DNA of 64,000 nucleotides from Nannocystis pusilla (GTDB taxonomy: Bacteria; Myxococcota_A; Polyangia; Nannocystales; Nannocystaceae). Both the position numbers and the translations under genes were made by a program. This document shows positions 25,919 through 64,000 of the stretch, piece by piece; the stretch's first letter is position 1, and each line of letters opens with the position of its first letter. The DNA lies in assembly GCF_049060185.1 (NCBI RefSeq), contig NZ_JBMEQO010000002.1; one strand, 5' to 3'. The notes under the pieces were generated by a model. That model ran no database searches, had not been told where the DNA came from, and worked only from the letters and a program-made list of their open reading frames with translations.

Positions 25919-25924
25919 CGGAGC

Positions 25925-27163
25925 ATGCCGGCGTACGCGTATACGGGCCTGCGCAAGGACGGCAAGACGGTCAAGGGCGTCGAGTCGGCCGACACGGTCG
26001 CCGCGCTCAAGGCCAACCTCAAGCGCGCCGGCATCTTCCTCACCGCGGTCAGCGAGACCACGGCGCAGGTGGCGGCTGCGGGCGGGGCGGGCGGCCGCGA
26101 GGTCGACCTCGGGGCGCTGTTCGACCGCATCTCGCAGAAGACGGTCTCGCGCACCACGCGGCTCCTGGCCACGCTGCTGTGCGCCGGCGTCACGCTGCCC
26201 GAGTCGCTGGCGGCGATCACCGAGCAGAGCGAGAGCCGGCGGCTCAAGGGCATCCTCAGCGACATCGCCAACAAGGTGAACGAGGGCAGCTCGCTGGCCG
26301 ACGCCTGCGCCCGCTACCCCGACGTGTTCCAGCCGCTGTTCATCAACATGGTCCGCGCGGGCGAGGCGTCCGGCTCGCTCGAGACCGTGCTCCTGCGCAT
26401 CGCCGACTTCATGGATCAGCAGGAGGAGCTGAAGGGCAAGGTCACCTCGGCGATGATCTACCCGGCGATCATGACCGTGCTGTCGGGCGGCATCATCACG
26501 ATGCTGATGCTCAACGTGGTCCCGCAGATCACGGAGATGTTCGAGGGCATGAACGCCCAGCTGCCGTGGAACACCGCGTTCCTGATCTGGCTCAGCGACT
26601 TCATCGCCGCCTGGTGGTTCATGATCATCGTCGGCTTCTTCGCCGCCGGCTGGCTGTTCCGCCGCTGGCGCAAGACCGACATCGGCCGCGCGACCGGCGA
26701 CACCATCCTGCTCAAGCTGCCGATCATCGGCGACCTCGCGCGCAAGCTGGCGATCGCCCGGTTCGCTCGTACACTTGCGACCATGCTCGCCAGCGGCGTG
26801 CAGCTGCTCGCGGCGCTCGACATCGTGCGGGCGCTGCTCGGCAACTGGGTGCTCGAGAAGGTCGTCGCCACCGCCCGCGACAACATCCGCGAAGGCGAGG
26901 GCATCGCCCCGGCGCTCAAGCGCAGCGGCCAGTTCCCGGCCCTGGTGACGCACATGATCTCGGTCGGCGAGCGCTCCGGCCAGCTCGAGCAGATGCTCAC
27001 CGACGTCGCCAACGCCTACGACCGCGAGGTCAACACCGCGCTCACGCGCATGACCGCGCTGCTGGAGCCCCTCATGATCGTGTTCATGGGCGGCAGCGTC
27101 GGCTTTATCGTGTTCTCGATCATGCAGCCGATCATGATGCTCAACGAAATGGCCGCGCAGTAG
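25925..27163 (+). CDS. gspF: Type II secretion inner-membrane platform protein GspF
   Basis: An intact 412-aa ORF with a duplicated T2SSF domain. Confidence 0.95.
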   Translation: MPAYAYTGLRKDGKTVKGVESADTVAALKANLKRAGIFLTAVSETTAQVAAAGGAGGREVDLGALFDRISQKTVSRTTRLLATLLCAGVTLPESLAAITEQSESRRLKGILSDIANKVNEGSSLADACARYPDVFQPLFINMVRAGEASGSLETVLLRIADFMDQQEELKGKVTSAMIYPAIMTVLSGGIITMLMLNVVPQITEMFEGMNAQLPWNTAFLIWLSDFIAAWWFMIIVGFFAAGWLFRRWRKTDIGRATGDTILLKLPIIGDLARKLAIARFARTLATMLASGVQLLAALDIVRALLGNWVLEKVVATARDNIREGEGIAPALKRSGQFPALVTHMISVGERSGQLEQMLTDVANAYDREVNTALTRMTALLEPLMIVFMGGSVGFIVFSIMQPIMMLNEMAAQ

Positions 27164-42072: not shown

Positions 42073-45000
42073 TCAGCTGCCGGCGGTGAAGTCCTCGCGG
42101 TTGCTGTCCCACCAGGCTTGCCAGGCGCGCAGGGCCAGCTCGCGGCTGCGGCGGTCGCCCTCGGCCGGGAACGGGATCCGCTGGCCGGTGATCCGCGCCA
42201 GCTCGTCGGCGGCCCAGCGGCGCACGGCCTCGTCGCGGTGGCGCAGGCCGTCGATGACCCACTCGATGCGCGGCTCCTGGCCGTGCTCGGCGTACCAGGC
42301 CCGCCAGCGCTGGGCGCGGTAGCCGTGGTGCTTGGCGGTGATCGAGCACAGGGCCTCGAGTGCGGCCTCGCGGACGTGCTTGTCGCGGACCGCCAGCAGG
42401 TCGATGAGGCGCGGCACTGCGAGGGTGTCGCGCAGCGTGCCGGCGGCCTCGACGGCGAGCAGCTGACGGTCGCGGTCCGAGCTCTCGAGCTCGCCGCGGA
42501 TCTCCGCGGCCACCGCCGCGAAGTCGGGCACGCGGCTGTAGGACTCGAGCACCCGGGTGGCGATCAGCCGCACGTCGGGGTCGGAGTCGAACGCCAGCTC
42601 GCCGAGTGGCCGCAGGCACTTCGGGTCGCGCAGCTCCTGGAACAGGAACGCGGCGTAGAAGCGGATCTGCGGCCGTGCGCTGGCGAACAGGGCGAGCACG
42701 TGCGGGCTGACCGCGTGGCCGAGCTCGACGCAGGCGCGCAGCAGCGGGCCGTGAGCGCTCGGCGGCGGGAAGTTGGTCGCGTTGGCGAGGTCGATGGGCC
42801 CGGGGAAGCGGGCGGCCAGGCGGGCCAGGCCGCGCTCGTCGAGCGCGCGCAGCCGCGACACGCTGGTCCACTCGGCCGGGTTCTGCAAAAAGTCCTCGAT
42901 CACCGCGTCGATCTCGCGGTCGTCGAGCGCCGCGCCAGAGGCGACCTCGGCGGCCGCGGCCGGCTCCTCGGTCGACGGCTCGTCGGCCGCGCGGCGCTCG
43001 TCGACCGGCGGGGCCGCGGCGGACCCGCTCGCCTCGTCGGCGCCGGCTGGCGCGCTCGAGTCGACCTGCGCTTCGGGACCGGTCTTGTGGGACATGTCCT
43101 CGGGAGCATGTTCCGAAGGGACGATCCCTCTCGCGGTCGACTGGGCCGCTGCCTCGTCGGCCTCGGCCTCGCGCACCAGCCGGGGCATGGTCAGGGCGCT
43201 GGACGAGGAGTCGGGGCGCGGGTCGTGCTTGCCGCGGCGCCGGCCGCTGCGCGGGCCGATCAGAGTGGTCGGCATCGACAGCGTGGGGCCGCCCTCGAGC
43301 TCGTCGGGGTCGCTGCGACGGGCCATCGGGTGCGGCGTGGCGGTGAGGCCGCCCGAGCGCCGCAGCGTCTTCGGGATCACCAGCACCGGCTCGTCCTCGT
43401 CCGGCTCGTTCGCGCGGCGACGGCGGCCCGCGCCGGGCGTGCCGGGCGGGGCGACCAGGTTGGGGATCAGGGTCTCGGGCGGGACCGGGGAGTCGACCCG
43501 CGGCAGGTCGAGGACGGTCTTGGCGTCGGGCGCGGCGCGGGTCTCGACCAGCAGCGGCTCGTGGGTCGGAGGCGGCGAGAGGTCGAGGATGGTCGGGGTG
43601 TCGGAGGCGGCGCGCGGCCACTCGTCGAACTCGTCGCGCGTGGATGTGGATGACCGCGTGGTCTCCTCGAGCACCACCCGCGGCGCGCCCGGCAGCGTCG
43701 CCGCCGGATCGTGGTCGACGCGGGCCGCGGCGGCGGTCGCGGCCGAGCGCAGCGCCGCGGCCACGGGCAGCGGGTCCTCGATGCCCGACGGTTCGGCGGT
43801 GGCGATCCAGCCCGGCATCTCCGGCTGCGGGCTCGCCGGCGGCGCCTCGGGGCTGTCCGATCGCGCATGTCCGAAGGTATTGGGCCGATCGGACAGGTCG
43901 ATCGTCACCGCCGGCAGCGGCGGCTTGGTGAACATCGCGGCGAAGCGGGCCACGAGCGGGCTGTCCTGGCCGTTCTCGGGGCCGAGCGGCACGGGGACCG
44001 GGGCGAGGCCGAGACCGGGGCCGTCGCGGCGCGGCGGCGGGCTGTCGGGCTCGTCGGGGTCGTCGGTGAGGTCCTCGTACTCCGGCTCGTCGGACGGGGG
44101 CGGCGGCTCGTCCGCGAGCGTCTGGGCCCGCACGAGCGCGGAGCTCTCGGCGCGGACCGGCAGCGGCGTCACGGTCGCCGGGTCGTCGCGGCGGATCGGG
44201 TTCTTCAGGGTGATGACGGCGCGTCCGCGGTTGCCGCGGCTGCGCAGCCGGCTGGCGAGGCTGTTGCTGTCCCCGAAGCCAGGTTCACTCGCCGCGCCGC
44301 TCGCGGTCGGCGGCGACTCGGGCTCGTCGGGTTCGGCCGAGCTCTCGGCGGCCGGCGCCTCGGGCTCGCTCTCGGAGCTGTCCGCAGAGACAGGTGGTGT
44401 CGTGGCCGGCGCGTCGGCCTCGTCGATGGTGACGATCGGGGTCGCCGGCCGGATCGACGGCCGCGTGCGGTCGGCCGGGCCGGCCCCGGGCGTGCCGCCG
44501 GGCACCACCCAGCCGAGCAGCCGCAGCAGCGCCTCGAGGCTCTGGCGGGCCGTGTCGCACAGCTCGCGCAGGACGGTCCGCTCGCGCGGATCGAAGGCGA
44601 CGCCGGAGCGGTCGAGGTAGAGCATCAGCACGGTGCGGCCGCCGGCGAGCACGGGCTCGAAGATGCAGGGGATCCCCAGCGGCTGGCCGACGGCGAACGA
44701 CAGGCTCGGCTCGATCAGGAGGTGCAGCGGTCCCTGGCCCGACACTGCGCGATCGAGCAGGCCGCCCTCGGGCAGCGGGATGACGAGGCCCTCGGACATC
44801 CGCAGCGCGCTGCCGGGCGCGGCCAGGACGCGCAGACCCTCGCGCTTGACCCCGAACAGGGCCACGCGGGGCGCGATCAGGCTGGAGGCCCGCACCAAAG
44901 CCTCGGTGATCCGGTCGCGCTCGCGCGCGGTGGCCAGAGTGGCGCGAGCGGCGTCGAGGCGCTGCGCCAGAGTCATGACCATCGGCTGCGGCAGGGCCGG

Positions 45001-47402
45001 CGGCTTGCGCGTCGACGACTCGACCCGATCCTCGTCGGACACGGCCTCGGGGGCGCCCGGCGCGGCCTCCGGAGAGCTGGCCGAAGGGACAGGCGGGCTC
45101 GGCGCGGGCTCGGCGGGGCTGACCGGAGGGACAGGTGTGCCCGGCGCGGGCTCGACGGGGCTGGCCGAAGGGACAGGCGGGCTCGGCGCGGGCTCGGCGA
45201 GGCTGACCGGAGGGACAGGTGTGCCCGGCGCGGTCGTGGAGCGAGCGACGCCGTTGCTGGGGCCGTGCGCGGACGCGGGCTTGTCGGCGGCGGGGGCGGG
45301 GGCGGGGGCGGGCGCCACGCCGACGGGGATGCCGACGAGGGTGCGCCTGTCCCAATTGCCAGACGAGGTGTCCGAATAGATGGGCACCCCGAGGGCCGGA
45401 GTCACCGGTCGCGGGGTGGTCGCCGGCGGCAGGATGATGAGCGGCGTGTCAGGGGCGATGGCCATCGCCGCCAGCGAGGCGTTCTGGTCCTCGAAGCCGC
45501 CCGGGTCGATGAGCGGGGCGTCCGGGGCGACGGGGACGGGCGAGGGCCGCGTCGACGGCCGTTTGGCGGGGGCAGCGGAATCGGGCTCGGGCGCCCGGGA
45601 GTCGTAGGCAGCCGTCTGGCGGCTCGCCGCGGCGGCAGGCGTGGGGGCGGTTTCGGTCCGGCGTCCCGTGGCGGCGTGGCCCGGGGTATCGAGCTGAGGT
45701 GACCTGGTCTCGGAGACAGGTGTTGCCTCCGGCGCAGGCGCGCGGCCGGAGGATGGGGCCGAGGCGTTCGCGGCGGAGCTGTCCGCGGGGACAGGTGCGG
45801 ACGGGGCAGTGACGCTCGGTGCTGCGGCGCGGCTGTCCTCAGGGACAGATGCGGCAGCAGGGGCCGACGCCGGCGCCGGCGTCGCGGTGCGGGTCGCGGC
45901 GGCCCGGTCCGCGGCGAGTTCGTCGGAGGCGCGAGGCGCGTTGGCGCGAGCGTCCGAGTCGGTCGCCGGCGAGCCGGCGAGAGCGGGGACGAACCCGCGG
46001 CGAGCGCGGGACCGTTCGCCGGGCGGGCCCGGTCCGCGTCGATGGCCGCGTCGCGGCTGTCCTTGAGTGCAGGTGCGAGCGACTCGCTCGGCCTGTCCCC
46101 GGGGACATGCGCCGTCGCGGCGGCGTCGTCGGGCGTGCCCGACCGCGGCGAGCCGGCCTCCGACGGCGAGGCGCCGGACGGCGAACCCGTCGCGCGCGCC
46201 GCGGTGTTCGGCCCGGACATCGCCGCCGGGCGCGGGCCGGCCATCTGCCTGTCCGATGGGACAGGTACGTCGGCCTGCAGCGCGTCGGCCAGCGACGGTC
46301 GCGCGCCCGCGGTCGCCTCGTCCATCGTGACAGGGGCGGTCTGCGTGTCTTCTGCGGCGTCGGCCTTCGGGGTGGCGGCAGGCCTGGCCTCGTCCACCTT
46401 CGCGTCGATGGCGGACCTGTCCGCCGGGACAGGCGCGTCCGCATGACCGGCGGCGACCTGGCCGCTCGCGGATTTGTCGGCGCGCGACGAACCGAAGGCA
46501 GGACCTCCGGCCTCGACCTCGACCCCGTGACTGGCGGCGGCCGTGTCGGGGCGACGGGCCGGGGCGCCTGCCCCTGGCTCGCGTCGGGCTGGGCCGCCGG
46601 GCCCTCGCCAGCGCTCGGCGCGTCAGCGTTGCGAGCGTCGACCGGCGTGTTCGCGCCGGACGGCTCCGATCCGGCGTCGGCCTGCGACCTGTCCGCAGGG
46701 ACAGCCGCATCGGCGCCGCGGGCATCGGCCGGCTGCCTGTCCGCGGGGACAGGCGCCCCCTCGCGCGCCTCGGCTGTCGGCCTGTCCGGGACAGCTGCCT
46801 CGGCGCGGGCTTCCGTCGGCTGCCTGTCTGATGAGACAGGTGCGTCGGCCGACCGCCTGTCCGCAGGGACAGCCGCCTCGCTCGGCCGCGGCTCGGCGGC
46901 GCCCGGCACCAGGCTGATCGTGATCGAGGCGGTGCGCAGCGCCTCGAGGTAGTCGAGCAGGATCAGCGCGTAGCGCGGGGCGAGGATCGAGCCGGTGCGC
47001 TCGGCGGCGATCTTGGCCAGGCAGCACTCGGGCGCGACGACCGGGTAGAAGCCGCGGACCATGCGGTAGAGCTGGCCGAGCTTGGCGTCGGGCAGGTCGG
47101 GGTGGACGGCGACGATCAGCCGGCCGTCCTCCTGCGCGAGCGGCATGGCCCAGCCGATGTCGACCAGGTCTCTCGGGACATGTTCCCAGGGACGGGTCGG
47201 CCCGCGCTCGAGCAGCCGCACCGGCGCGCCGGGAGGCCGCAGGCGCTCTGCAGCAGGGCGTCGAGCTGCAGCGGGGTCATCAGCCCGAGCTCGAGGATCG
47301 CGGTGTCGAGGCTGCCGCCGGCCAGCTGCTGCCGCCGGGTCGCGGCCTCGAGATCGGCGCGCGACAGCGGGCCGTTGGCTTCGAGGTGGCGCAGGAGGAG
47401 GC
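42073..47402 (-). CDS. Giant multidomain protein (~1770 aa). Its domains, in order, are: two N-terminal GspE-N/MshEN-like domains, long Pro/Ala/Asp-rich tandem repeats, a GAF-like domain, acidic/Pro-rich linkers, and C-terminal HEAT (PBS-lyase-type) repeats. It has at least one frame switch near 46800-47200.
   Basis: The N-terminus is VSLLLRHLEANGPLSRADLEAATRRQQLAGGSLDTAILELGLMTPLQLDALLQ. It is followed by MRLLERGPTRPWEHVPRDLVDIGWAMPLAQEDGRLIVAVHPDLPDAKLGQLYRMV. The middle has a GAF-like block MVMTLAQRLDAARATLATARERDRITEALV... The C-terminus has HEAT repeats ...DPDVRLIATRVLESY...VRDKHVREAALEAL...DEAVRRWAADELARI. The GTG start overlaps the stop of the upstream RDD gene. Confidence 0.55.
46089..46875. 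repeat. Coding tandem repeat of 33-48 bp units, each beginning with a TGTCC-N4-GGACA palindrome
   Basis: The units are CCTGTCCGCAGGGACAGCCGC..., CCTGTCCGCGGGGACAGGCGCC..., CCTGTCCGGGACAGCTGCC..., CCTGTCTGATGAGACAGGTGCG... and CCTGTCCGCAGGGACAGCCGCC. They encode the protein repeat AVPADR(Q/S)(P/A)(T/A)(E/D)A... Confidence 0.75.
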
Positions 47403-52951: not shown

Positions 52952-54367
52952 TCAACCGGTCGCGCCGCGGCCGGTGATGTCGATGCGGCGCCAGGCGCCG
53001 GTGCGGAAGCGGAGCACCATCGCCAGGGCCAGGAACACCATATACACGCACATGCTCCACGTCGCCGCGACCGCGCCGCCGTCCCAGACGAACACGGTCA
53101 GCCAGGCCAGGGGCAGCCAGATCACCCAGGCGAGCGAGATCCGGAGGATCAGCGGCCAGGCGGTGTCGCCGGCGGCGCGCAGCGCCTCGTTGACGGTGAT
53201 CACGGTGGCGTCGAGCAGCTGCCACACCGCGCTGATCGCCAGCAGCTGGGCGCCGAGGTTCACGACCTCGCCGGACGTCTCGATCTCGTCGCGGGCGAAG
53301 ATCATCATCAGCGGCACCGGGAACGTGAAGTAGAGCAGCCCGACCAGGCCTTGCCAGACGGCGGCGACCGAGAAGGTGCGCACCACGATCCGCGGCACGT
53401 AGTCGTGGCGACCGGCGCCGATCGCCTGGCCGACCAGGACCGCCCCGGCCGAGCCGAGGCCGAAGGCGGGCATGAACGAGACCGAGTTGACGGCCACCAC
53501 GGCCATCAGCGCCGCGACCGCGACGGTCCCGAGCTCGGCGACCACGAGGTTGATGAAGATCAAAAAGGCCGCGAACTCGAGGAACCAGTTGAGGCCGTTC
53601 GGCAGGCCGAACCGCATCATCCGCGAGAACTCGCGCAGGTTGAGGCGGCCGTCCGAGCTGTCCGGAAGGTCAGGTACCGGGTGCTCGACGGGGCCGAGCA
53701 CCGCCGGGTCGACCGTCCGCTGGCCGCGCGCGCGCCAGAAGGCGTGGCAGCACACTGCGAAGCCGGCCACGCTGGCGAACACGCTGGCCCACGCGGCCCC
53801 CTGGACGCCGAGCGCGGGGGCGCCGAGGTTGCCGTAGATCAGGACCCAGTTGAGGCCGATGTTGACGACCATCGCGACCAGGCTGGCGTGCATCGACACC
53901 CGGGTGTTGCCGAGGCCGGCGAACCAATTGCCGAGCGCCTCGGTGCCGACGACCACGCCGGTGCTGAGCATGCGGATCGCCATGTACTCGGCCATCGTCT
54001 CGCGCACCGCCGGCTCGTGGCCCGTGAGCGACAGCAGCGGGCCTATCGCCGGGATGGCGGCGATGGTGGCGAGCATCGCCACGGCGGCCAGGCACAGGCC
54101 GTACCAGGCGTAGCGGCGCGCGCTGGCGAGGTCGCCCCGGCCGGCGAGCTGGGCCGCGTAGCTCTGGACGATGAACGTGATGCCCATCGGCAGCACGAGG
54201 ATCCCCAGCGCGTTCATGGCGCCCGTGGTCGCGGCCGCGAGCGCGTCGTCGCCGAGCGGGGCGACCATCGCCGCGTCGCTGAAGCTGATCACCGACTGCG
54301 CCGAGCGTGCGAGCACGATCGGCCAGGCGAGGGTGATGAGCGCGCGGAGTCCGGGGACCGAGGCCAT
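52952..54367 (-). CDS. MATE-family efflux transporter
   Basis: The N-terminus is MASVPGLRALITLAWPIVLARSAQSVISFSDAAMVAPLG. There are 12 predicted TM segments and MATE repeat structure. Confidence 0.8.
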   Translation of the reverse strand: MASVPGLRALITLAWPIVLARSAQSVISFSDAAMVAPLGDDALAAATTGAMNALGILVLPMGITFIVQSYAAQLAGRGDLASARRYAWYGLCLAAVAMLATIAAIPAIGPLLSLTGHEPAVRETMAEYMAIRMLSTGVVVGTEALGNWFAGLGNTRVSMHASLVAMVVNIGLNWVLIYGNLGAPALGVQGAAWASVFASVAGFAVCCHAFWRARGQRTVDPAVLGPVEHPVPDLPDSSDGRLNLREFSRMMRFGLPNGLNWFLEFAAFLIFINLVVAELGTVAVAALMAVVAVNSVSFMPAFGLGSAGAVLVGQAIGAGRHDYVPRIVVRTFSVAAVWQGLVGLLYFTFPVPLMMIFARDEIETSGEVVNLGAQLLAISAVWQLLDATVITVNEALRAAGDTAWPLILRISLAWVIWLPLAWLTVFVWDGGAVAATWSMCVYMVFLALAMVLRFRTGAWRRIDITGRGATG

Positions 54368-55999
54368 GGGCGCGGCAGGATACTCGGCCTTCGCCCGCGA
54401 CGTCTCGCGCGTCAAGGCGCGCGCGAACTGTGCAGCCGCCGGATCGACGAGGCTGTCGACGCTCACGCGGCCGTTGCTGGCGAGGTGACGCAGCACCTGC
54501 CACACCGCCACGGGGTCGGCGCCGAGCGTCTCGGCGAGCTCGCGCGCGGTCTTGCCTCCAGATCCGCCCGGCAGCGCAGCGAGCACCGCGGCCTGCAGCG
54601 TGAGCACGCCCTTCGCCGCCTGCTTGCCGGCCTCGACGCCGGGCTGGTGGTAGGCGTTGACGTCGATGAGCTCGGCGTAGATCCCGACGGCGCGCTCGAA
54701 CAGCGCGATCAAGGCGCCGACGGCGGCGGCGTCGACCTGGCGCAGGACGATCGTCGCGCTGGCCCGACCGCGCTCGGCGAGCGCGGCGCGGGTGCCCTGG
54801 TAGAAGCCGTCGAGGCAGTCGCCCGAGCTCACCTGCGGCTCGACCTCGACCATGCCCGGTCCCGTGACCTGGCCGTCGAGGTCGCGGAGCACCCGCACGA
54901 ACACCGCGAAGAAGTTGTGCAGGCCGTCGCGCAGCTGCTGCACATAGGCGTGTTGGTCGGTCGAGCCCTTGTTGCCGTAGACCGCGAGCCCCTGCCACAC
55001 CTCGCGGCCCTGGCGGTCGAGCCGCTTGCCGAGCGACTCCATCACCAGCTGCTGCAGGTAGCGCGACATCAGCGACAGGCGATCCTTGTATGGCAAAATG
55101 ACCATGTCCCGAAGGCCATGTCCGGAGCCCTGCTGGTGCCACAGCCAGGCGAGCAGGGCGGCCGGGTTGCGCCGCGCCGGCCGCACGCGGCCCCACTGGT
55201 CCATCGCCGCGGCGCCGCGCAGGAGGCCGCGCCAGTCGTGGCCGAGCAGCGCCGCCGGCAGCAGGCCGACCGGCGAGAGCACGCTGGTGCGCCCGCCGAC
55301 CCAGTCCCACATCGGGAAGCGCGCCAGCCAGCCCTCGCGCTGCGCCAGCTGGTCGAGCGTGCTGCCCTCGAGGGTGATGGCGATCGCCCGCTTGGGGAAC
55401 TCGATCGCCTGCCGGGCGCAGGCGGCCCGCAGCTCGAGCATGCCGTTGCGCGTCTCGACGGTGGAGCCCGACTTGGAGACGACGAGGATCAAGGTCTGCG
55501 CGAGCGTACCTGTCTCTGCGAGCAGGTCGGCGATGCCGGCGGGGTCGGTGTTGTCGAGGACGCGCAGGCTGAAGCCGGGGCCGCTGTCGCGCGCGGTGAG
55601 GGCGGCCTCGAGCAGCTGCGGGCCGAGAGCGCTGCCGCCGATCCCGACGAGGATGGCGCCGGTGAACGGCCGGCCGTCGTCGGCGAGGATCTGGCCGCCG
55701 CGCACGCCGGCGGCGAAGGCCTCGATCTGCCGCCAGCTTTCGTGGATGGCCTGGGTGATCGCGGGATCGGGGGCGCGCTCCGGGTCGCGCAACCAGTAGT
55801 GCCCGACCATGCGGCCCTCGTCGGCGTTGGCGACGGCGCCGCCCTCGATCCGGTGGAGGGCGTCCAGCGCGGCCTCGAGCCGCGGGGCGCTGGCGGTCAG
55901 CGCGGGCTCGTCGAGCTGGGCGTCGGCGAAGTCGAGCTCGATGTCGAGTTCGGCACGGTAAAGGCGCCAGGTGAGATAGTGGTCGAGTGCGTCGGCCAT
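54368..55999 (-). CDS. pgi: Glucose-6-phosphate isomerase (Pgi). It is in frame with the downstream MATE gene and no stop was found.
   Basis: The sequence reads MADALDHYLTWRL... The PGI family signatures VGIGGSALGP and ...SKSGSTVETRNG are present, followed by the SIS domains. Confidence 0.85.
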
Positions 56000-56465
56000 G
56001 TCGGCGCGCTTTATAGCAGCGTCGGCGCTCGCGGGGAGCCTGGGGACGCCAGGCCTCGGGCGGGCGGCCTTGCTGCAGGGGTTCGTTGCAGTTGCTGCGG
56101 AGTCACGGTTCGCGAACTGCCGAGGCCGCCGTGCAGCGGTCGGGGACGCGGGCCGGCGCCCAGTCCTCGCGGATGCACCCTCCTTCGTCGGGCGCATCTC
56201 GCTGCGGATGGGCGCCGACCCGCGTCCCCGACCGCTGCACGGCCAGCCTCGTGGGTGGCCCGAGCGCCGGTCTCGGGCTTCGCTGTCGGGAGGGCGCGGG
56301 GCGGGGAGGGCTCTCCGAGCGATGGACGGCCGGGGCCGGCCGCCCATCGCTCGGACCTCCTGGAGACCTATCCGGCGCTCGTCGGTGCGCGGCGACGGGC
56401 GGCGCGGGCGGTCGTCTCGGGGCGGCGAACGGCGGCGGGGGACGCGTGCGGAGGACTGGGGAAAG

Positions 56466-56548
56466 TCATGGCATGTCCTTCACGGCATGTTGTGAAGAAC
56501 ATGGTGACATGGACATGTCTCTACGGGCATGTCCATGCGGGCATGCCG
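56466..56548. repeat. Tandem array of ~6 palindrome units in an intergenic region
   Basis: The array reads TGGCA|TGTCCTTCACGGCA|TGTTGTGAAGAACA|TGGTGACATGGACA|TGTCTCTACGGGCA|TGTCCATGCGGGCA|TGCC. Confidence 0.75.
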
Positions 56549-56583
56549 ATCGATGTGGCTTGTTCGGCGGGGGCGCGCGGGCG

Positions 56584-57708
56584 TCAGCCGGGATCGAGGC
56601 CGACGCTGCGGACGATCTCGGTCATCGCGGGGCGGGCGGCGGCGAGGTCGTCGCGGGTCTTGATCGGGAGGAAGCGGGAGCGGTCGACCCGCAGGCAGGC
56701 GGTCCTGGCGAACTCGGTGATCTGGCCGATGAGCTGTTCGAACTGGATGACGGGTTGGTCGTCGCGGCCGGGCCACTCGACGGAGCGCTCGACGGGGAAC
56801 CAGGTGAGCGGGTAGGGGCGCTCGAGGGCGGCCAGGGAGATCCACAAGGTGTTGGTGTTGAAGTGCGGATACTGGGCCAGGGAGACGCCGGGGGGCAGGC
56901 GGAAGGACTCGATGATGGTGGCGCGGCCGTCGACCTCGGCGACGCAGCCGCCGGCGTCGTCGGGGGCCCGCGCGACGACCTCGACGCTGAGCTCGGCGCC
57001 GCCGTCGACTGCGTCGAGGTGAGCGCCGAGGACGGTGGGATCGAGGGAGGCGCCGAGGTTGTCGACGTTGGAGACGAGGAGGTGCTCGATGCCGCGACGC
57101 CGCAGCTCGGCGACGACGCCGCTGTCGCGCACGCGCCGGAGGGTGTCGCCGTGGCCGGGGGCGGCGTAGACGGTGGTGTCGGGCAAGACGTCGGCCCCGG
57201 GCAGGCTGACGAGCGGGGTGCCGTCAGGCGAGACGCGCGGCATCAAGGACTGCAAGAACTCGTGGCGATCGTCGGCAGGGACGCCGGACCAGCCGATGGT
57301 GGCGAGGTGATCGCCGGAGGCTGCCCGGGTGGCGAAGCTGTGCATGACGACGGCCGGGACACCGGCCGCGCGGACGCCGGCGAGCTTGACGGCCAGGAAC
57401 GAGAGGTCAGGTCGATCGGGCAAGACCGGGACGACGCCCTTGACGACGCCGCCGAAGCGCGTGGCCATGCCACCGTTCAAGACCAGGGCGGCGACCTTGC
57501 GCGCGGCGAGGGCTTCCTGACCGCGGGCGCGCCAGCCGGGCCGGGCGTCGGCGCGGCCGAGGTCGAGCAGGACGTCGTCGCCGAGCGGCCGCGGCGGGGC
57601 GGTCAGCCGGGCGCGCGTGGGGCTGAGCTCGCCGCGGGCGAGGGCGCTGCGGAGAAAGTCGAAGAGGGCGGCGTCGAAGGCGATGTCGGCGACCGAAGGG
57701 CGGAGCAT
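56584..57708 (-). CDS. UDP-sugar pyrophosphorylase (UDPGP family, eukaryotic-type UTP--glucose-1-phosphate uridylyltransferase-like)
   Basis: An intact 374-aa ORF with the UDPGP-type motif LVLNGGMATRFGG. Confidence 0.7.
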   Translation of the reverse strand: MLRPSVADIAFDAALFDFLRSALARGELSPTRARLTAPPRPLGDDVLLDLGRADARPGWRARGQEALAARKVAALVLNGGMATRFGGVVKGVVPVLPDRPDLSFLAVKLAGVRAAGVPAVVMHSFATRAASGDHLATIGWSGVPADDRHEFLQSLMPRVSPDGTPLVSLPGADVLPDTTVYAAPGHGDTLRRVRDSGVVAELRRRGIEHLLVSNVDNLGASLDPTVLGAHLDAVDGGAELSVEVVARAPDDAGGCVAEVDGRATIIESFRLPPGVSLAQYPHFNTNTLWISLAALERPYPLTWFPVERSVEWPGRDDQPVIQFEQLIGQITEFARTACLRVDRSRFLPIKTRDDLAAARPAMTEIVRSVGLDPG

Positions 57709-57986: not shown

Positions 57987-59102
57987 TCACAGGCGACCGA
58001 CGGAGCGGGCCCACGCGACTGTGTGCTCGAGCCCTCGCGCGAGCGGCCAAAGTGGGGCGTACTCGAGCTCGCGCACGGCCCGGCTGTCGTCGCACCACCA
58101 GCCCGGCGCCATGCTGCCGCGGGCCTTGTCGAGGGTCAGCGCGGGGGCCTTGCCGCGCAGGCGGCCGATCGCGTGGTTGATGCCGGCGACGGTCCACACC
58201 GCGGCCTGCGGCATCGGCAGCGCGAGCGCCCGCCGGCCGAGCGCCGCGGCGGCGGCCCGGCCGAACTCGACGACGGTGCTACGCTGGCCGTCGGTCAAGT
58301 AGTAGATGCCGGCGCCGGCGGGTGAGAGATGTCCTCGGGGACATGGTCGAAGGGGCTGCCTTGATCGGCGAGCACGTGCTCGCCGTCGCGGGGATCGGGC
58401 AACCGCGAGCGCCGGCGCGGGCGATGCCCTCGACGAGATCGAGGGCGTGGATGAAGGACATCCACGCGGGGCGCAGGCCGGGCTGGGCGATCACCCCGAA
58501 CTTGGCGGAGCGGATCATCTGCAACATGTCGAGGTCGCGCGGGCCGTAGACCGCCGGCGGACGCACGATCACCGCCTCGACGTCGCCGGTGCGCGCGGCC
58601 GCGAAGACCAGCCGCTCGCCGTCGAGCTTGCTGTCGCCGTAGAGCGTGTAGCCGACGCGCGGGGCGTGGTGCTCACGCCGCGCGACCTCCGGGTGCGACG
58701 GGCCGGCGGCCATCAACGACGACACGTAGACGAGCCGCCGCGGCCGTCGCGGGCCTGGCGGATCGCCGCGAGCACGTTGGCGACGCCGGCCGCGTTGGCC
58801 CGCGCGAACTCGTCGCGGGTGAACGCGGCGGTCAGGCCGGCCACGTGATAGACGGTGTCGACGCCGTCGAACGCGGCCGCCATCGCGTCGACGTCGGACA
58901 GCGACGCGCGCACGAGCTCGGGCTGCGCGTCGGTCCGCGCGAGCGCGTCGGCGAGGTTGTCGAGGTTGGCGCTGGCGCGGACCATCGCCCTCACGTCGTC
59001 GCCGCCCGCGAGCAGACGATCGACGAGGTGACTGCCGATGAAGCCGTTCGCGCCGGTGACGAGGACCTTCGTGCGCACGAAGCGGGGATTACCCACCGCC
59101 AT
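57987..59102 (-). CDS. NAD-dependent epimerase/dehydratase. It is frameshifted and carries a palindrome-unit insert-like segment.
   Basis: The N-terminus KVLVTGANGFIGSHLVDRLL has the GxxGxxG motif. YGDSK (YxxxK) is present. The C-terminus is in a third frame. Confidence 0.75.
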
Positions 59103-59372
59103 GCGTCGACGTCAAGGCGGTGACACAGGGCTCGAGAGCTTCACCACGCGCCGCTTCGATCGCGGTCTCTTGTCCGCAGCATGCGTGACATACAGCCAGT
59201 GTGCGACGCATTTCGCAGTCTACACGCGAGCGCGAGCGCGACTCGGCCGTCGAGTTCGCTGCGGGGCGTGGAGATTGTTGCACTCGAGATTAACTACCAG
59301 CGGCCGATGCAGCCGCATGCGGCCGTATCGAGGCGCATCATTTTATGCACCGGTTTAAATAGTTCGCCGATA

Positions 59373-59389
59373 AGGCCAGCGCGTCGCAA
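59373..59389 (+). promoter_or_regulatory. Weak sigma54-like -24/-12 candidate (AGGCCA-N5-TCGCA) upstream of the lipid operon
   Basis: The GG and GC dinucleotides are at canonical spacing, but the other positions are poor. It sits in a lower-GC promoter-like region. Confidence 0.2.
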
Positions 59390-59523
59390 TCTGCAACACG
59401 TGCAACGAGGCGACAGGCGCGCTGCACGTGGATCCGCATGCGCTGAGGAACAAAATTTCCGTGACAGCCGCGATACTTTCGCTGTAACTACGCCCGGGCC
59501 CCGACATGCCGGGGAGTTCCGTG

Positions 59524-60777
59524 ATGGGCCGCGAAGCCGAGCACAGTTTGGCCGACTTCTACTTCTCGGACAGCGACGATCCGCTCCGTCCGCCCGAGGG
59601 CTTCGTGCAGTGGGCCGAGGCCGGCTCCTGGGCGATGTCGATGTACGAGCCCCACATGTTGGGGGCCGTCGCACCGCGCATGGCGATCGAACGCGCCGGC
59701 GAACGCAGCGACGTCATCAACCTCAGCTCGTACAACTACCTCGGGCTGGCGACGCACCCGGAGGTCGTCGAGGCGGCGCAGGAGGCCCTGCGCACCTACG
59801 GCACCGGGGCCTGCGGATCGCCGCTGCTGTCGGGGCTGTCGGATCTGCACCGCGGGCTCGAGCGCGAGCTGGCGGCGTTCCTCGGCCAGGAGGACTGCAT
59901 CCTCTTCAACAGCGGCTTCGCCGGGGAATGGGCACGCTGGCCGGCGTGTTGCGCAAGGGCGACGTGGCCATCCTCGACGCCAAGACCCACCTGTGCTCGA
60001 TCGACGGCGTCAAGCTGTCGCGCGCCAAGCTGGTGTTCTTCGACCACAACGACCCCGACTCGCTCGACCAGGCGCTGACCGACAGCGAGGGCGCGCGCCG
60101 GCTGGTGGTGGTCGAGGGCGTGTACTCGATGGACGGCGACACGGCCGATCTGCCGAAGCTGCTGCCGGTGGCCGAGAAGCACGGCGTCGGCGTGCTGATC
60201 GACGAGGCCCACTCGATCCTCGTCTACGGCGCCAACGGCCGCGGCGTGGTCGAGCACTACGGCGCCGAGAAGTCGATCGGCCTGCAGTTCGCGACCTTCA
60301 GCAAGGCGTTCGCCGGCTGCGGCGGCTTCACCGTCGGACCGCGCGCTGCTGCAGTACATGCGCTACTACATCAACGCCTACGGCTTCAGCTGCGCGCTGC
60401 CGCCGGCGGTGGTGGCCGGGCTCCGCAAGGCGCTCGAGGTGGCGACCCGCGACAACTCGCTGCGCGAGACGCTGTGGGCCAACACCCGCTACTTCCGCGA
60501 GAAGGCGCAGCAGATCGGCCTCGACCTCGGGCATGGCTCGAGTCAGGTGGTGCCGATCATGGTCGGATCGGATCGCCGCCGGCTGTATGAGTTGACGCGC
60601 ACGCTCCACCGCCGCGGGCTGTTCCTCGCGCCGGTCGACTACCCCTCGGTGCCCGAGGACGGGCTGCGCTTCCGCGTCGCGATCACGGCCGCGCACACGC
60701 GCGCCGACCTCGACCGCGCGCTCGAGATCCTCGAGGACACGATCATCCGCGGCCGCGTCGACGGGGCGGCCGAGTGA
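59524..60777 (+). CDS. Alpha-oxoamine synthase (serine palmitoyltransferase / 8-amino-7-oxononanoate synthase family). It is frameshifted.
   Basis: The motifs VINLSSYNYLGLATHPEVVEAAQEALRTYGTGACGSPLLSG ... GFAGNMGTLAGVL ... SKAFAGCGGF are present. The PLP-Lys region is conserved. It spans three frames. Confidence 0.8.
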
Positions 60778-60798
60778 GCGGGACAGGGTAGGGGCACG

Positions 60799-61809
60799 AT
60801 GAAGACGACGCTGGTGTTCATGTTCCCAGGGCAGAGCTCGCGCTACCCCGGGATGCTCGGCAAGCTGGCCCGGCTGCACCGCCGGGCCGCCGAGGTGCTG
60901 GCGCGCTGCAACGACGTGCTCGGCCGCGACCTCGACGCGCACACCAGCGAAGACAACCCGACGGCGTTCGATCGCAACGTCGACGTCCAGGTCGGCGTGT
61001 TCGTCGCCAACCACATGATGCTCAGCATCCTGCAGGCCGAGGGCGTCGACGCCGAGCTGTCGCTGGGGCTGTCGCTCGGCGAGTACAACCACCTCGTCCA
61101 CATCGGCGCGCTCGAGCTGCCGGAGGCGCTGCGCCTGGTCCAGGCCCGCGGCGAGGCCTACGACGCCGGCCCGCGCGGGATGATGGCCTCGGTCCAGCCG
61201 CTCGACCTCGAGACGCTCGAGGAGGTGGTCGAGCAGATCCGCGGCCAGGGCCTCGGGGTGCTCGAGATCGTCAACCTCAACTCGCCGAAGCAGCACGTGC
61301 TGTCGGGCGACGCCGCCGCGGTCGAGGCCGCGGTCGCGCTGCTGGAGGACGAGCACTACGTGGTGCCGACGATCATCGAGCGCCAGGTGCCGATGCACTC
61401 GTCGCTGTTCGAGCCGGTCGGCGTGGCCCTGCGCCCGCACCTGCAGCGCGCGCGCTTCAAGGCCCCGCGGCTGCCGTACCTGCCGAACCGCCGCGGCGAG
61501 TTCATGCCGGCGCCGGGGCCGGGCGTGTTCGTCGACCTGCTCGAGGAGCACGTGCACACGCCGGTGCTGTGGCGCAAGTCGATCGACCGCGTCACCGAGC
61601 GCCACCCGGGCGCGGTGTTCGTCGAGGTCGGCCCGCGCCAGGTGCTTCACAACCTGCTCGACCGCAAGTGGTCGTCGCGGCCGAAGTACGCCACCGACAA
61701 CCGCGACGATGCCGCCGGGCACCTGGCCGGCGTGCTCGCGGCGCTGCGCCAGCACCTGCCGCCGACCCCGCGCAAGGACGTGGCTCAGGAGGCGTCGTGG
61801 ACGAGCTGA
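60799..61809 (+). CDS. Acyltransferase (malonyl-CoA:ACP transacylase FabD-like)
   Basis: An intact ORF with FPGQSSRYPGM and the active-site GLSLGEYN (GHSxG-type). There is no C-terminal extension. Confidence 0.85.
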   Translation: MKTTLVFMFPGQSSRYPGMLGKLARLHRRAAEVLARCNDVLGRDLDAHTSEDNPTAFDRNVDVQVGVFVANHMMLSILQAEGVDAELSLGLSLGEYNHLVHIGALELPEALRLVQARGEAYDAGPRGMMASVQPLDLETLEEVVEQIRGQGLGVLEIVNLNSPKQHVLSGDAAAVEAAVALLEDEHYVVPTIIERQVPMHSSLFEPVGVALRPHLQRARFKAPRLPYLPNRRGEFMPAPGPGVFVDLLEEHVHTPVLWRKSIDRVTERHPGAVFVEVGPRQVLHNLLDRKWSSRPKYATDNRDDAAGHLAGVLAALRQHLPPTPRKDVAQEASWTS

Positions 61810-62351
61810 GCGGCCTCGACGCGCTGATCAAGCAGCACCGCCGGCGGCCCGTGTTCGTGCCCGGAGAGGGCAGCACGCGGGTCGAGTTCGGCCGCGCCGC
61901 GATCGAGCGCATGCTGCCGCACCGCGATCCGTTTCTGTTCGTCGACGCGATCGACGCGGTCGAGCTGCCGCGCACGCCCGAGGACCCGGGCATGATCCGC
62001 GGCGTGCGGACTATCGACGCCGGCGACGCGGTGTTCGCCGGCCACTTCCCCGGCGACCCGGTGTACCCAGGCGTGCTGCTGGTCGAGGCGATCGGGCAGC
62101 TCGGGATCTGTCTCTTGCACCTCATGGCCAAAGGGACAGCCAGCATCGACGCCGCCGACGCGCCGGCGCGCCTGCGGCTGCTCAAGGTCCACCACGCCCT
62201 GTTCCAGGGCGGCGTCCGCCCGGGTGACCGGCTGACGCTGCTCGCCCGCTCGCTCGAGCACAGCGACTACGTCTCGACCTGCGTCGGCCAGGCCCTCCGC
62301 GGCGAGGAGGTCCAGGCCCTCGCGGTGTTCGAGGTCTACTTGATGGACTGA
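61798..62351 (+). CDS. FabA/FabZ-type 3-hydroxyacyl-ACP dehydratase
   Basis: A GTG start overlaps the upstream stop. The motifs LPHRDPFLFVD...GHFPGDPVYPGVLLVEAIGQ are present. Confidence 0.8.
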
Positions 62352-62370
62352 CTCCCCCAGAAGAGCACGC

Positions 62371-63680
62371 ATGGTCTCATCGCAGGCACAATCGCCCCGC
62401 CGCGTGGTCATCACCGGCCTCGGCATCAACACGCCCCTGGGCGACGATCTCGACACCTTCTACGCCAACCTCGTCGCCGGCAAGTCGGCGATCACGCGCT
62501 GGAAGTGGCACAACAACGACGGCGTGTACTCGAAGATCGGCGGCGATCTGTCGGAGTACGACGTCAAGGCCAAGCTGGCGCGTCTGCGCGACGTGCTGCC
62601 GGCCGAGGTGCACAAGCGGGCCCGCCAGCTGTGCAACAAGGCGCCGTTCTCGACGTCGCTGTCGGTGCTGTGCGCGGCCGATGCCTGGCGCGACGCCGGC
62701 ATGGTCGAGGTCGCGGACCCGACCCGCTGCGCGGTGCTGGTCGGCGGCCACAACCTCAACGAGCGCTACTTCGCCGACAACTACGTCACCTTCCAGACGG
62801 AAGACCCCGACTACATCGACTCGATGGCGGCGCTGCACATGCTCGACACCGACCACGCCGGCTCGGTGAGCGAGATGCTCGGCTGGAAGGGCGCCTGCTA
62901 CACGCTCGGGGCGCGTGCGCCAGCGCGAACGTGGCCCTGCGCAACGCGATCGACGAGATCCGCCACCACGACCACGACATGGCGATGGTGGTCGGCGCGG
63001 TGCTCGACTTCTCGCAGATGGGCGTGCACGCGATGGCGCTGCTCGGCGCCATCACCTTCGAGAGCTTCAACGACACGCCCGAGCTGGCCAGCCGGCCCTA
63101 CGACTCGCGGCGCGAGGGCTTCGTGCCGTCGCACGGGGCGGGCGCGCTGGTGCTCGAGGAGCTCGGCCACGCGCTGAAGCGCGGCGCGACGATCTACGCC
63201 GAGGTGCTCGGCTGCACCTCGACGTCGGACGGCTGCCACCTGCCGTCGCCGTCGACCGAGGGCCAGGCGCGCACGCTCGAGCGGCTGCTGCGGCGCGCGC
63301 AGGTGCGGCCCGACGAGATCGACTTCGTGTGCGCCCACGCGACCAGCACGCCGCTCGGCGACCTGTCCGAGCTCAACGCGATCCGCAAGGTCTTCGGCGC
63401 CCACGCCAAGAAGCTCAAGATCAACGCGCCGAAGTCGATGCTCGGCCACACCTGCTGGTCGGCGCCGGCGGTCGAGACCGTGGCGGCGATGCTGCAGATG
63501 CGCGGCGGCGTGCTGCACCCGTCGATCAACATCGACGAGCTCGACCCCGAGGTCGACCTCGACGTGTGCGCCAACAAGGCGGTCGAGCACCGCATCGAGC
63601 TGATGGTCAAGAACTCGTTCGGCTTCGGCGGCCTCAACTGCTGCGCGCTGTACCGCCGGTGGGACCCGAACAGCCTGTGA
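62371..63680 (+). CDS. Beta-ketoacyl-ACP synthase (KAS I/II-like). It has one frame switch near 62900.
   Basis: The sequence reads VVITGLGINTPLGDDLDTFYANLVAGKS... The active-site Cys region (GACYTLG) is at the frame switch. The His-His region reads CAHATSTPLGD...LGHTCWSAP. Confidence 0.85.
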
Positions 63681-63689
63681 GCCGCGCCA

Positions 63690-64000
63690 TGAACTTCTTC
63701 GTCACCGGAGGCTCGCGGGGCATCGGCGCCGGCATCGTGCTCGAGGCGGTGCGTGCCGGTCACGACGTCGCGTTCGCGTACCGCAGCAACGACGACGCGG
63801 CGCGCAAGATCGAGGCCGAGGCGGCGGCGATCCGCCCGGGCGCGAAGGTCAAGGGCTACGCGCTCGACGTGAGCCGCTCCGACCGCGTCGGCGAGGTCGC
63901 CGACGAGGTGCTGAACGACTTCGACAGCGTCGAGGTGATCGTCAACTGCGCCGGCATCAACCGCGCCAACCTCGTGGTCTCGATGTCCGACGAGGAGTGG
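63690..64000 (+). CDS. SDR family oxidoreductase (3-oxoacyl-ACP reductase-like). Partial; it runs off the window end.
   Basis: The sequence reads MNFFVTGGSRGIGAGIVLEAVRAG...NCAGIN. Confidence 0.8.

Follow-up and report, generated by a model that had tools for sequence, protein, structure and literature searches.

A candidate long-chain-base operon with a methyl-branching cassette next to a ceramide-reductase-like gene in Nannocystis pusilla

We analyzed a 64,000-nucleotide stretch of the genome of the myxobacterium Nannocystis pusilla (RefSeq assembly GCF_049060185.1, contig NZ_JBMEQO010000002.1; hereafter the window), at the end of which the gene for an alpha-oxoamine synthase (AOS) opens an operon of fatty acid synthase (FAS)-like genes. 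An initial annotation, made from the letters of the window, had read in these genes a pathway devoted to making one particular acyl chain and joining it to an amino acid, and had named a sphingolipid or ceramide as a reasonable guess at the product. Comparative evidence supports both ideas: the AOS belongs to a clade with ceramide-gene synteny, a homologue of the ceramide reductase CerR lies upstream, and a homologue of the bacterial ceramide synthase (bCerS) lies near the AOS in relatives. We think it likely, from sequence comparison, that the operon encodes the long-chain-base arm of a ceramide-type lipid, in which a Spt-like AOS is combined with its own FAS-like enzyme set and a methyl-branching cassette. 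The window holds the first half of this operon.

Operon content and ceramide-gene synteny

Pfam matches and translations confirmed the order and plus-strand orientation that had been proposed for the five operon genes in the window, for an AOS, an acyltransferase (AT), a dehydratase (DH), a ketosynthase (KS) and a ketoreductase (KR). Together with the divergent gene upstream, the features are as follows:

57987..59102, minus strand: CerR-like reductase of the NDUFA9/extended short-chain dehydrogenase/reductase (SDR) type, divergent and broken (Pfam Epimerase/3Beta_HSD/NAD_binding_10, in two pieces)
59103..59523, no strand: divergent intergenic region of 421 bp between the CerR-like gene and the AOS operon
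59524..60777, plus strand: Spt-like AOS, 418 aa once repaired (Pfam Aminotran_1_2, in three frames)
60799..61809, plus strand: FabD-like AT, intact (Pfam Acyl_transf_1, 2.4e-21)
61797..62351, plus strand: FabZ/ApeI-like 3-hydroxyacyl-acyl carrier protein (ACP) dehydratase, DH (Pfam FabA, 8.8e-19)
62371..63680, plus strand: FabF-like condensing KS, 436 aa once repaired (Pfam ketoacyl-synt and Ketoacyl-synt_C, in two frames)
63692..64000, plus strand: FabG-like 3-oxoacyl-ACP reductase, KR, of which the first 103 codons precede the cut at the window end (Pfam adh_short/KR)

The Aminotran_1_2 match of the AOS falls into three pieces (profile positions 2-79, 83-241, and 247-360), and its start at 59524 agrees with that of 418-aa homologues that are 99% identical. 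The GTG start of the DH gene, set by comparison with the related locus L003, overlaps the AT stop codon by 13 nt. The intergenic region is non-coding, lacks a coding signal in the GC content of third codon positions (GC3), and presumably serves both the CerR-like gene and the AOS operon as promoter region; the lower-GC stretch noted earlier in front of the AOS is indeed present (GC 0.62-0.63 at 59000-59600 versus 0.70-0.75 around it). Promoter and terminator scans of this region gave no hit, a sigma-70 consensus site included, nor did it have an Rfam match. A comparable divergent gap is seen in relatives (442 bp in L088, Nannocystaceae bacterium ST9).

The operon had been expected to continue beyond the window, and in relatives it does: the complete order is AOS-AT-DH-KS-KR-HCS-ECH1-ECH2-ER-ER-ACP, with a homologue of HMG-CoA synthase (HCS), two of enoyl-CoA hydratase (ECH1 and ECH2), two enoyl reductases (ER), and one ACP. 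We found it in relatives at 80-97% nucleotide identity, as well as in N. pusilla, N. radixulma, and Nannocystaceae bacterium ST9, and the contigs that carry it encode AOS proteins 79-94% identical to that of the window. The closest named genomes are N. pusilla Na p29 and N. radixulma. With 96% nucleotide identity at the Na p29 locus, the window belongs to a related strain and not to Na p29 itself. The initial annotation had suggested looking downstream for ACP, acyl-ACP synthetase, and ceramide synthase genes: the ACP gene does end the operon in relatives, but no acyl-ACP synthetase or ceramide synthase gene lies downstream, and it is a second Nannocystis locus, described below, that carries homologues of bCerS, acpR, and aasR.

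By homology, the operon thus combines the AOS and one ACP with a complete HCS cassette and a complete type II FAS-like elongation set that lacks FabH. The best NCBIfam model for the AT is fabD (149 bits, under the cut-off), its active-site motif is GLSLGE, and it is probably a malonyl-CoA:ACP transacylase; it is present in HCS-type clusters and absent from clusters without HCS. For the DH the best model is FabZ, and the GHFPGDPVYPGVLLVEA motif is seen in its translation, while the full-length 247-aa KR orthologue of L003 scores 238 bits to TIGR01830. Two operon SDRs carry a Y-x6-K motif and match FabL/FabI models, and we therefore take them to be the enoyl reductases. All Fab-type elongation activities are present, with every score under the NCBIfam fab equivalog cut-offs. 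The earlier view that this is not a standard fab cluster stands: the AOS and the HCS cassette are in one operon with the FAS-like genes, and no gene for a KAS III occurs in it. Judged by what defines type II FAS, namely Fab equivalogs and a FabH initiator, the operon falls short on both counts, given scores under cut-off and the lack of a KAS III gene in the operon.

The AOS has the fold and active-site residues of the SPT/KBL family to which it had first been assigned. Its PF00155 match covers profile positions 2-360 across three frames, as expected for the BioF/Kbl/Spt/ALAS superfamily of pyridoxal phosphate (PLP) fold type I, and K261, D227, H230, and H156, each conserved without exception in the alignment of the family, align with the corresponding residues of SPT, ThAOS, and KBL. 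The PLP lysine lies in ATFSKAF and a DEAHS motif is present, as in Sphingobacterium SPT; we consider the shared FSK and AHS motifs to be weak evidence for Spt. The protein is 33.6% identical to Sphingomonas Spt. As a separate observation, AOS homologues of Plesiocystis, Pseudenhygromyxa, and related metagenome-assembled genomes (MAGs) (P0076-P0112) are 513-534 aa long and have an N-terminal extension of ~100 aa without a Pfam match.

We scanned reference genomes for the AOS family, which gave 80 loci for synteny analysis and a neighbour-joining tree. In one AOS clade, nearly all members have a gene for a ~375-aa tandem GNAT protein and/or KS/ACP/HCS genes within 10 kb; an outer clade (Gemmatimonadota, Acidobacteriota, and others) has neither. 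The window AOS falls in the clade that co-localizes with bCerS-like and CerR-like genes. In published work, an AOS counts as Spt-like when its gene co-localizes with those for bCerS and CerR (PMC11334938), and here a CerR-like gene adjoins the window AOS, while a GNAT and a reductase gene adjoin the AOS in L088 and L009. Specifically, in L088 one operon holds the genes for the bCerS-like GNAT and the reductase and runs divergently from the complete AOS-HCS operon, and in L009 (a Myxococcales MAG) the GNAT gene is placed between those for the reductase and the AOS. The GNAT gene also adjoins the AOS in about 30 verrucomicrobial, spirochaete, and Bradymonadaceae loci. It is this synteny from which we infer serine as the AOS substrate.

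Several comparisons identify the ~375-aa tandem GNAT family, at the level of homology, as the bacterial ceramide synthase family. The N. pusilla GNAT is 32.5% identical over 97% of its length (E 2e-48) to an N-acetyltransferase of Sphingomonas parapaucimobilis, whose locus reads NAD(P)H-binding protein/ACP/class-I/II aminotransferase/lptF/lptG/desaturase/N-acetyltransferase. The Caulobacter ceramide cluster, cerR-acpR-spt ... lptF2-lptG2-cerS, has the same layout as this Sphingomonas locus (PMC11324152). The CerR-like orthologue of L003 can be aligned from end to end with the Sphingomonas protein that precedes acp-spt and so holds the position of CerR (27.5% identity over 356 aa, E 2.5e-24), and the divergent upstream gene is, by the same kind of comparison, a homologue of the ceramide reductase CerR. 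NCBIfam holds no specific model for the GNAT or the reductase; the latter matches HpnA and OleD weakly. An AlphaFold model of the GNAT (pLDDT 78) retrieved generic tandem-GNAT folds only in a Foldseek search against the PDB, because a bCerS structure is absent from that database.

In N. pusilla the bCerS-like GNAT gene lies in a second locus (L087 10001-13282), where it is followed by genes for an AcpR-like ACP and a 589-aa AMP-binding ligase that resembles AasR and the fatty acyl-AMP ligases (FAAL). Other myxobacteria have acpR-aasR operons that match this locus (PMC9386255). A possible role of the ligase is to provide bCerS with the N-acyl chain or the KS with a primer. In Verrucomicrobiota the AOS and GNAT genes form a compact cluster, as in L022 (9090-17992) and about 30 other loci (Chthoniobacterales, Udaeobacter MAGs), with the order fatty acid hydroxylase-AOS-GNAT-MGDG-synthase-like glycosyltransferase-two CDP-alcohol phosphatidyltransferases-nucleotidyltransferase-SDR. 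We predict this to be a phospho- or glyco-sphingolipid locus in abundant soil Verrucomicrobiota. A bCerS-family gene also occurs on plasmid pRo-1 of Roseomonas gilardii (L090 8959-10116), among lptF/G-like, sterol-desaturase-family, and CDP-alcohol phosphatidyltransferase genes. Several Roseomonas records name it 'dATP pyrophosphohydrolase', which in view of these neighbours is probably wrong.

The branching cassette and a proposed pathway

Since the HCS gene lies just beyond the window end, we tested its product on the L003 orthologue. Its nearest solved structures are CurD (279 bits) and PksG (242), versus 226 for the top chain named simply HMG-CoA synthase, and it is under the HMG-CoA synthase equivalog cut-off (253 versus 360). 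The alignment is full length, C-terminal region included; the Glu/Cys/His residues align, the catalytic Cys with the residue mutated in 5kp8. ECH2 passes NF005496, the PksI-type domain model (275.5 bits, cut-off 215), and the best model for ECH1 is the PksH-type NF005498 (112.7 bits, under cut-off). The best NCBIfam model for the KS is PRK07103, a polyketide beta-ketoacyl:ACP synthase of the PksF type (353 bits versus a cut-off of 445); its nearest solved structures are FabF, and its Cys-His-His is conserved in all HCS-type clusters. With the catalytic triad retained, the KS could both decarboxylate and condense. The ACP fits the AcpK type best (61 bits, cut-off 79). One ACP family is conserved in AOS clusters with or without HCS, usually beside the AOS, which is why we think that this ACP passes the acyl chain on to the AOS.

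Based on these assignments, we propose the following pathway. The AT would load malonate onto the operon's own ACP, and the FabF-like KS would decarboxylate malonyl-ACP to acetyl-ACP and also carry out condensation. HCS would then add acetate to a beta-ketoacyl-ACP, and ECH1 and ECH2 would dehydrate and decarboxylate the adduct, respectively, to give a methyl-branched enoyl-ACP. KR, DH, and the two FabI/FabL-type reductases would run ordinary reductive cycles, after which the Spt-like AOS would condense the finished acyl-ACP with serine and release a 3-keto long-chain base. The bCerS homologue, encoded elsewhere in Nannocystis with the acpR and aasR homologues, would N-acylate the base, and the divergently encoded CerR homologue would reduce the ketone. 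KR and DH are retained in every HCS-type cluster, which implies that the chain passes at least one ordinary cycle plus one branching cycle. What the sequences show is gene content and order, catalytic residues, homologies, and synteny; the sharing of a single ACP, the chain length, and the branch position are, like serine, inferred.

Within this pathway, the branch could be placed in different ways. The detail we prefer, which takes somewhat less than half of the weight, is that the cassette acts on acetoacetyl-ACP to give isovaleryl-ACP, which would then be elongated to an iso-branched chain from acetate alone. Branching at acetoacetyl-ACP is what CurD carries out, and the route leaves no gene idle and does without an external primer. 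Somewhat under a third of the weight goes to a methyl branch near the head group, introduced on a preformed acyl chain that is extended for one or two cycles, a possibility to which the FAAL-containing variants and the Nannocystis FAAL/ACP pair point. For the broader proposal, our confidence is evenly balanced: that the HMG-synthase cassette, a private type II FAS, and one shared ACP build a methyl-branched chain (iso-terminal or with at least one internal branch) from acetate alone, that the Spt-like enzyme turns it into a branched sphingoid base, and that this module, both conserved and mobile, extends over Myxococcota, Spirochaetota, and Ca. Eisenbacteria. It would be a route to branched long-chain bases that is independent of leucine.

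Clusters with both AOS and HCS occur in all Nannocystaceae loci retrieved, two other Myxococcota MAGs, one Ca. Eisenbacteria MAG, and eight Spirochaetota loci, including the Olavius algarvensis spirochete symbiont. The gene order differs in Spirochaetota and Ca. Eisenbacteria; in spirochaetes it is GNAT-AT-KS-KR-HCS-ECH1-ECH2-ER-ACP-AOS-DH. Genes for a second FabF-like KS, an Sfp-type phosphopantetheinyl transferase, and an OleD/HpnA-like extended SDR lie near the spirochaete clusters (L050 11781-16899). The same segment also holds an LPG_synthase_TM (flippase-like) protein and a Rce1-like protease beside the AOS-HCS operon. Variants without HCS exist as well. An alphaproteobacterial MAG has KS-KR-ER-ER, and in the Bradymonadales-type loci L051 (4574-11760) and L047 a 1152-aa FAAL-ACP-KS protein, followed by KR, ER, ACP, AOS, and DH, stands in place of AT, KS, and cassette, so that both AT and HCS are missing. 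The FAAL of this protein is 37.6% identical to the Nannocystis ligase encoded beside bCerS. In the Bradymonadales variant, a preformed fatty acid probably undergoes one dedicated round of elongation ahead of the Spt-like step.

Alternative readings and frameshifts

A number of observations weigh against a dedicated long-chain-base pathway. The AOS scores under all three NCBIfam Spt cut-offs (SerpalmtaseCFB 295.8, cut-off 640; BetaP 289.5, cut-off 500; AlphaP 231.5, cut-off 670), and among PDB structures it is about equally close to Sphingobacterium SPT (246 bits) and the promiscuous Thermus AOS (247 bits). The window contains no bCerS homologue, which is encoded at the second locus, and the acpR-aasR homologues there could feed Spt instead. 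Decarboxylases of branching cassettes are reported to carry Ser in place of Cys, and the KS here keeps Cys. Branch-acceptor ACPs of trans-AT polyketide synthases (PKS) are marked by a conserved Trp; this Trp is absent from the single operon ACP in 12 of 12 clusters, and the operon encodes one ACP only. Nor do ER genes vary in number with HCS: L016 has two of them and lacks HCS, and spirochaete clusters have one alongside HCS. Finally, genes of the system are frameshifted in this assembly. On the subject of the reductases, we also considered a second ER dedicated to the branched enoyl intermediate and dropped this idea, as ER copy number is independent of HCS.

Some of these points would fit a specialized-metabolite cluster, in which a small type II PKS/FAS-like system with beta-branching hands its chain to an AOS that releases an amino-ketone or amino-alcohol, to serve as a signal, toxin, or sphingolipid mimic and not as a bulk ceramide backbone. 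Elsewhere, HCS cassettes are known as parts of polyketide biosynthesis, and among solved structures CurD and PksG come closest to the HCS here; the patchy distribution across phyla and the shuffled gene order suggest horizontal transfer; the AOS belongs to no curated Spt equivalog; and the conventional route could be served by the Nannocystis acpR-aasR homologues. We nevertheless regard this explanation as unlikely, given that in more than 30 loci, spread over several phyla, genes of the AOS clade are linked to bCerS-like and CerR-like genes, and that head-group and hydroxylase genes typical of membrane sphingolipids adjoin the AOS in relatives. Furthermore, no second AOS gene lies beside the Nannocystis bCerS locus, and the cluster is found in every Nannocystaceae locus that we retrieved.

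The frameshifts raise the question of whether the operon is a decaying, non-functional remnant, as it would be if those of the AOS, KS, and reductase genes were real; in the window they affect three of the six genes that we examined. Deletions of 1 nt near 59924 and of 2 nt near 60339 spread the AOS gene over three frames, the KS gene lies in two (1-nt deletion near 62907), and the CerR-like gene is broken by about three to four single-base deletions, including those near 58319, 58389, and 58750. We called indels between 58.3 and 62.9 kb by alignment with three independent relative assemblies (L005, L006, and L003), which gave nine in the window (58319, 58389, 58750, 59083, 59416, 59924, 60339, 60790, and 62907). 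All nine are window-specific deletions of 1-2 nt. Stretches of three or four G adjoin seven of them, those at 59924 and 62907 among them; at 60339 (2 nt) and 59416 (intergenic) the context is a CG/GC repeat instead. Two of the nine lie in non-coding DNA. In-frame stop codons are absent, and GC3 stays at 0.94-1.0 on either side of every shift. Once repaired, the AOS is 99% identical over 418 aa to the intact homologues P0001 and P0002, and L003-L006 have intact CerR-like orthologues of 364-382 aa. In addition, when the window is compared with a public long-read contig of N. pusilla, small gaps are again numerous (77 gap openings in 12 kb). A remnant is thus highly improbable: because the deletions are window-specific and mostly at G runs, GC3 is steady, and the homologues are intact, the frameshifts are almost certainly consensus errors of the assembly rather than gene decay. 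The pattern looks like uncorrected long-read consensus error, and other open reading frames (ORFs) of the window may also be split falsely.

Scarcely credible, finally, is an AOS that is BioF or Kbl and makes KAPA for biotin or 2-amino-3-ketobutyrate, with the fab-like genes supplying a thioester that is either short-chain or of pimeloyl type. Among NCBIfam models, bioF does nominally score best (329.7 bits), and homologues are called 8-amino-7-oxononanoate synthase in some sources, but the score is under the TIGR00858 bioF cut-off of 426.45 and close to those of the Kbl and Spt models, the AOS also being under the Kbl, ALAS, and CqsA cut-offs; the genes downstream encode HCS, two ECH, two enoyl reductases, and ACP, none of the related loci has bioA, bioD, bioB, or tdh, and the synteny is with ceramide genes. 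The refutation envisaged in the initial annotation, an AOS of BioF type followed by biotin genes, thus fails.

Flanking genes and comparison with known systems

Downstream of the CerR-like gene, the window carries further minus-strand genes, identified by Pfam:

56584-57708, minus strand: UDPGP-family nucleotidyltransferase, short
52952-56347, minus strand: phosphoglucose isomerase (PGI) and MatE/MOP transporter, in one 1131-aa ORF

PGI and MatE are separate genes in L003. The order of the minus-strand genes at 52952..57708 is kept in L003-L008; L001 and L002 differ in part, with UDPGP kept and PGI and MatE not seen. Whether these genes belong to the AOS system is uncertain. A role in providing a sugar head group and in lipid export is possible; we saw no glycosyltransferase gene with them. 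Elsewhere, the window contains genes for a T2SSE ATPase and a T2SSF platform protein of a type II secretion/type IV pilus-like system (24071-27163), unrelated to the AOS operon, and a 1550-aa ORF on the minus strand (42073-46725) whose only recognizable features are C-terminal HEAT/Arm repeats.

Of the known systems, the closest is the Spt/bCerS/CerR pathway with AcpR/AasR of Caulobacter and Sphingomonas (PMC11087976, PMC11324152, and PMC9386255), in which the AOS likewise stands beside a dedicated ACP. The NDUFA9-like reductase and tandem-GNAT N-acyltransferase families are shared with it, Nannocystis has an acpR-aasR-like pair, and the three genes for AOS, GNAT, and reductase co-localize in relatives of the Nannocystis operon. 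There, however, acyl-ACP comes from free fatty acid via an acyl-ACP synthetase, whereas here the operon brings AT, KS, KR, DH, two ER, and HCS/ECH1/ECH2, and the reductase lacks an obvious signal peptide while Caulobacter CerR is reported to be periplasmic. All six component types of the PKS HCS cassettes, as in Bacillus subtilis (PksC/AcpK/PksF/PksG/PksH/PksI) and curacin biosynthesis (CurB-F), have homologues in the Nannocystis operon. It differs from them in that it has no modular PKS and a single discrete ACP is apparently both donor and acceptor, that the KS keeps its catalytic Cys, and that the cassette sits within a type II FAS-like set from which an AOS releases the chain. With type II FAS (FabD, FabF, FabG, FabZ, FabI/FabL, and AcpP) the operon shares a homologue of each elongation enzyme; unlike it, the operon lacks FabH, is joined to an AOS and an HCS cassette, and uses a distinct ACP family that co-varies with the AOS. 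The Bradymonadales variant (L051 and L047) has the same AOS clade and ACP family, with KR/ER/DH beside the AOS, but its type-I-like FAAL-ACP-KS protein loads a preformed fatty acid, and AT and the HCS cassette are absent. Full-text literature searches, which covered few subscription papers, turned up no report in which a Spt-like enzyme is coupled to an HCS cassette or a private FAS, so that this result is provisional.

Bacterial sphingolipid synthesis has recently been resolved, with Spt pictured as using acyl-CoA or acyl-AcpR derived from an existing fatty acid. The operon points to a third way of supply: the long-chain base would have a synthase of its own, with programmed methyl branching. 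If our proposal is true, it would explain branched sphingoid bases in bacteria that make few branched fatty acids, and it would extend HCS cassettes beyond polyketide synthases into a membrane-lipid pathway. It would also provide a genetic marker of branched long-chain bases for metagenomic lipid surveys.

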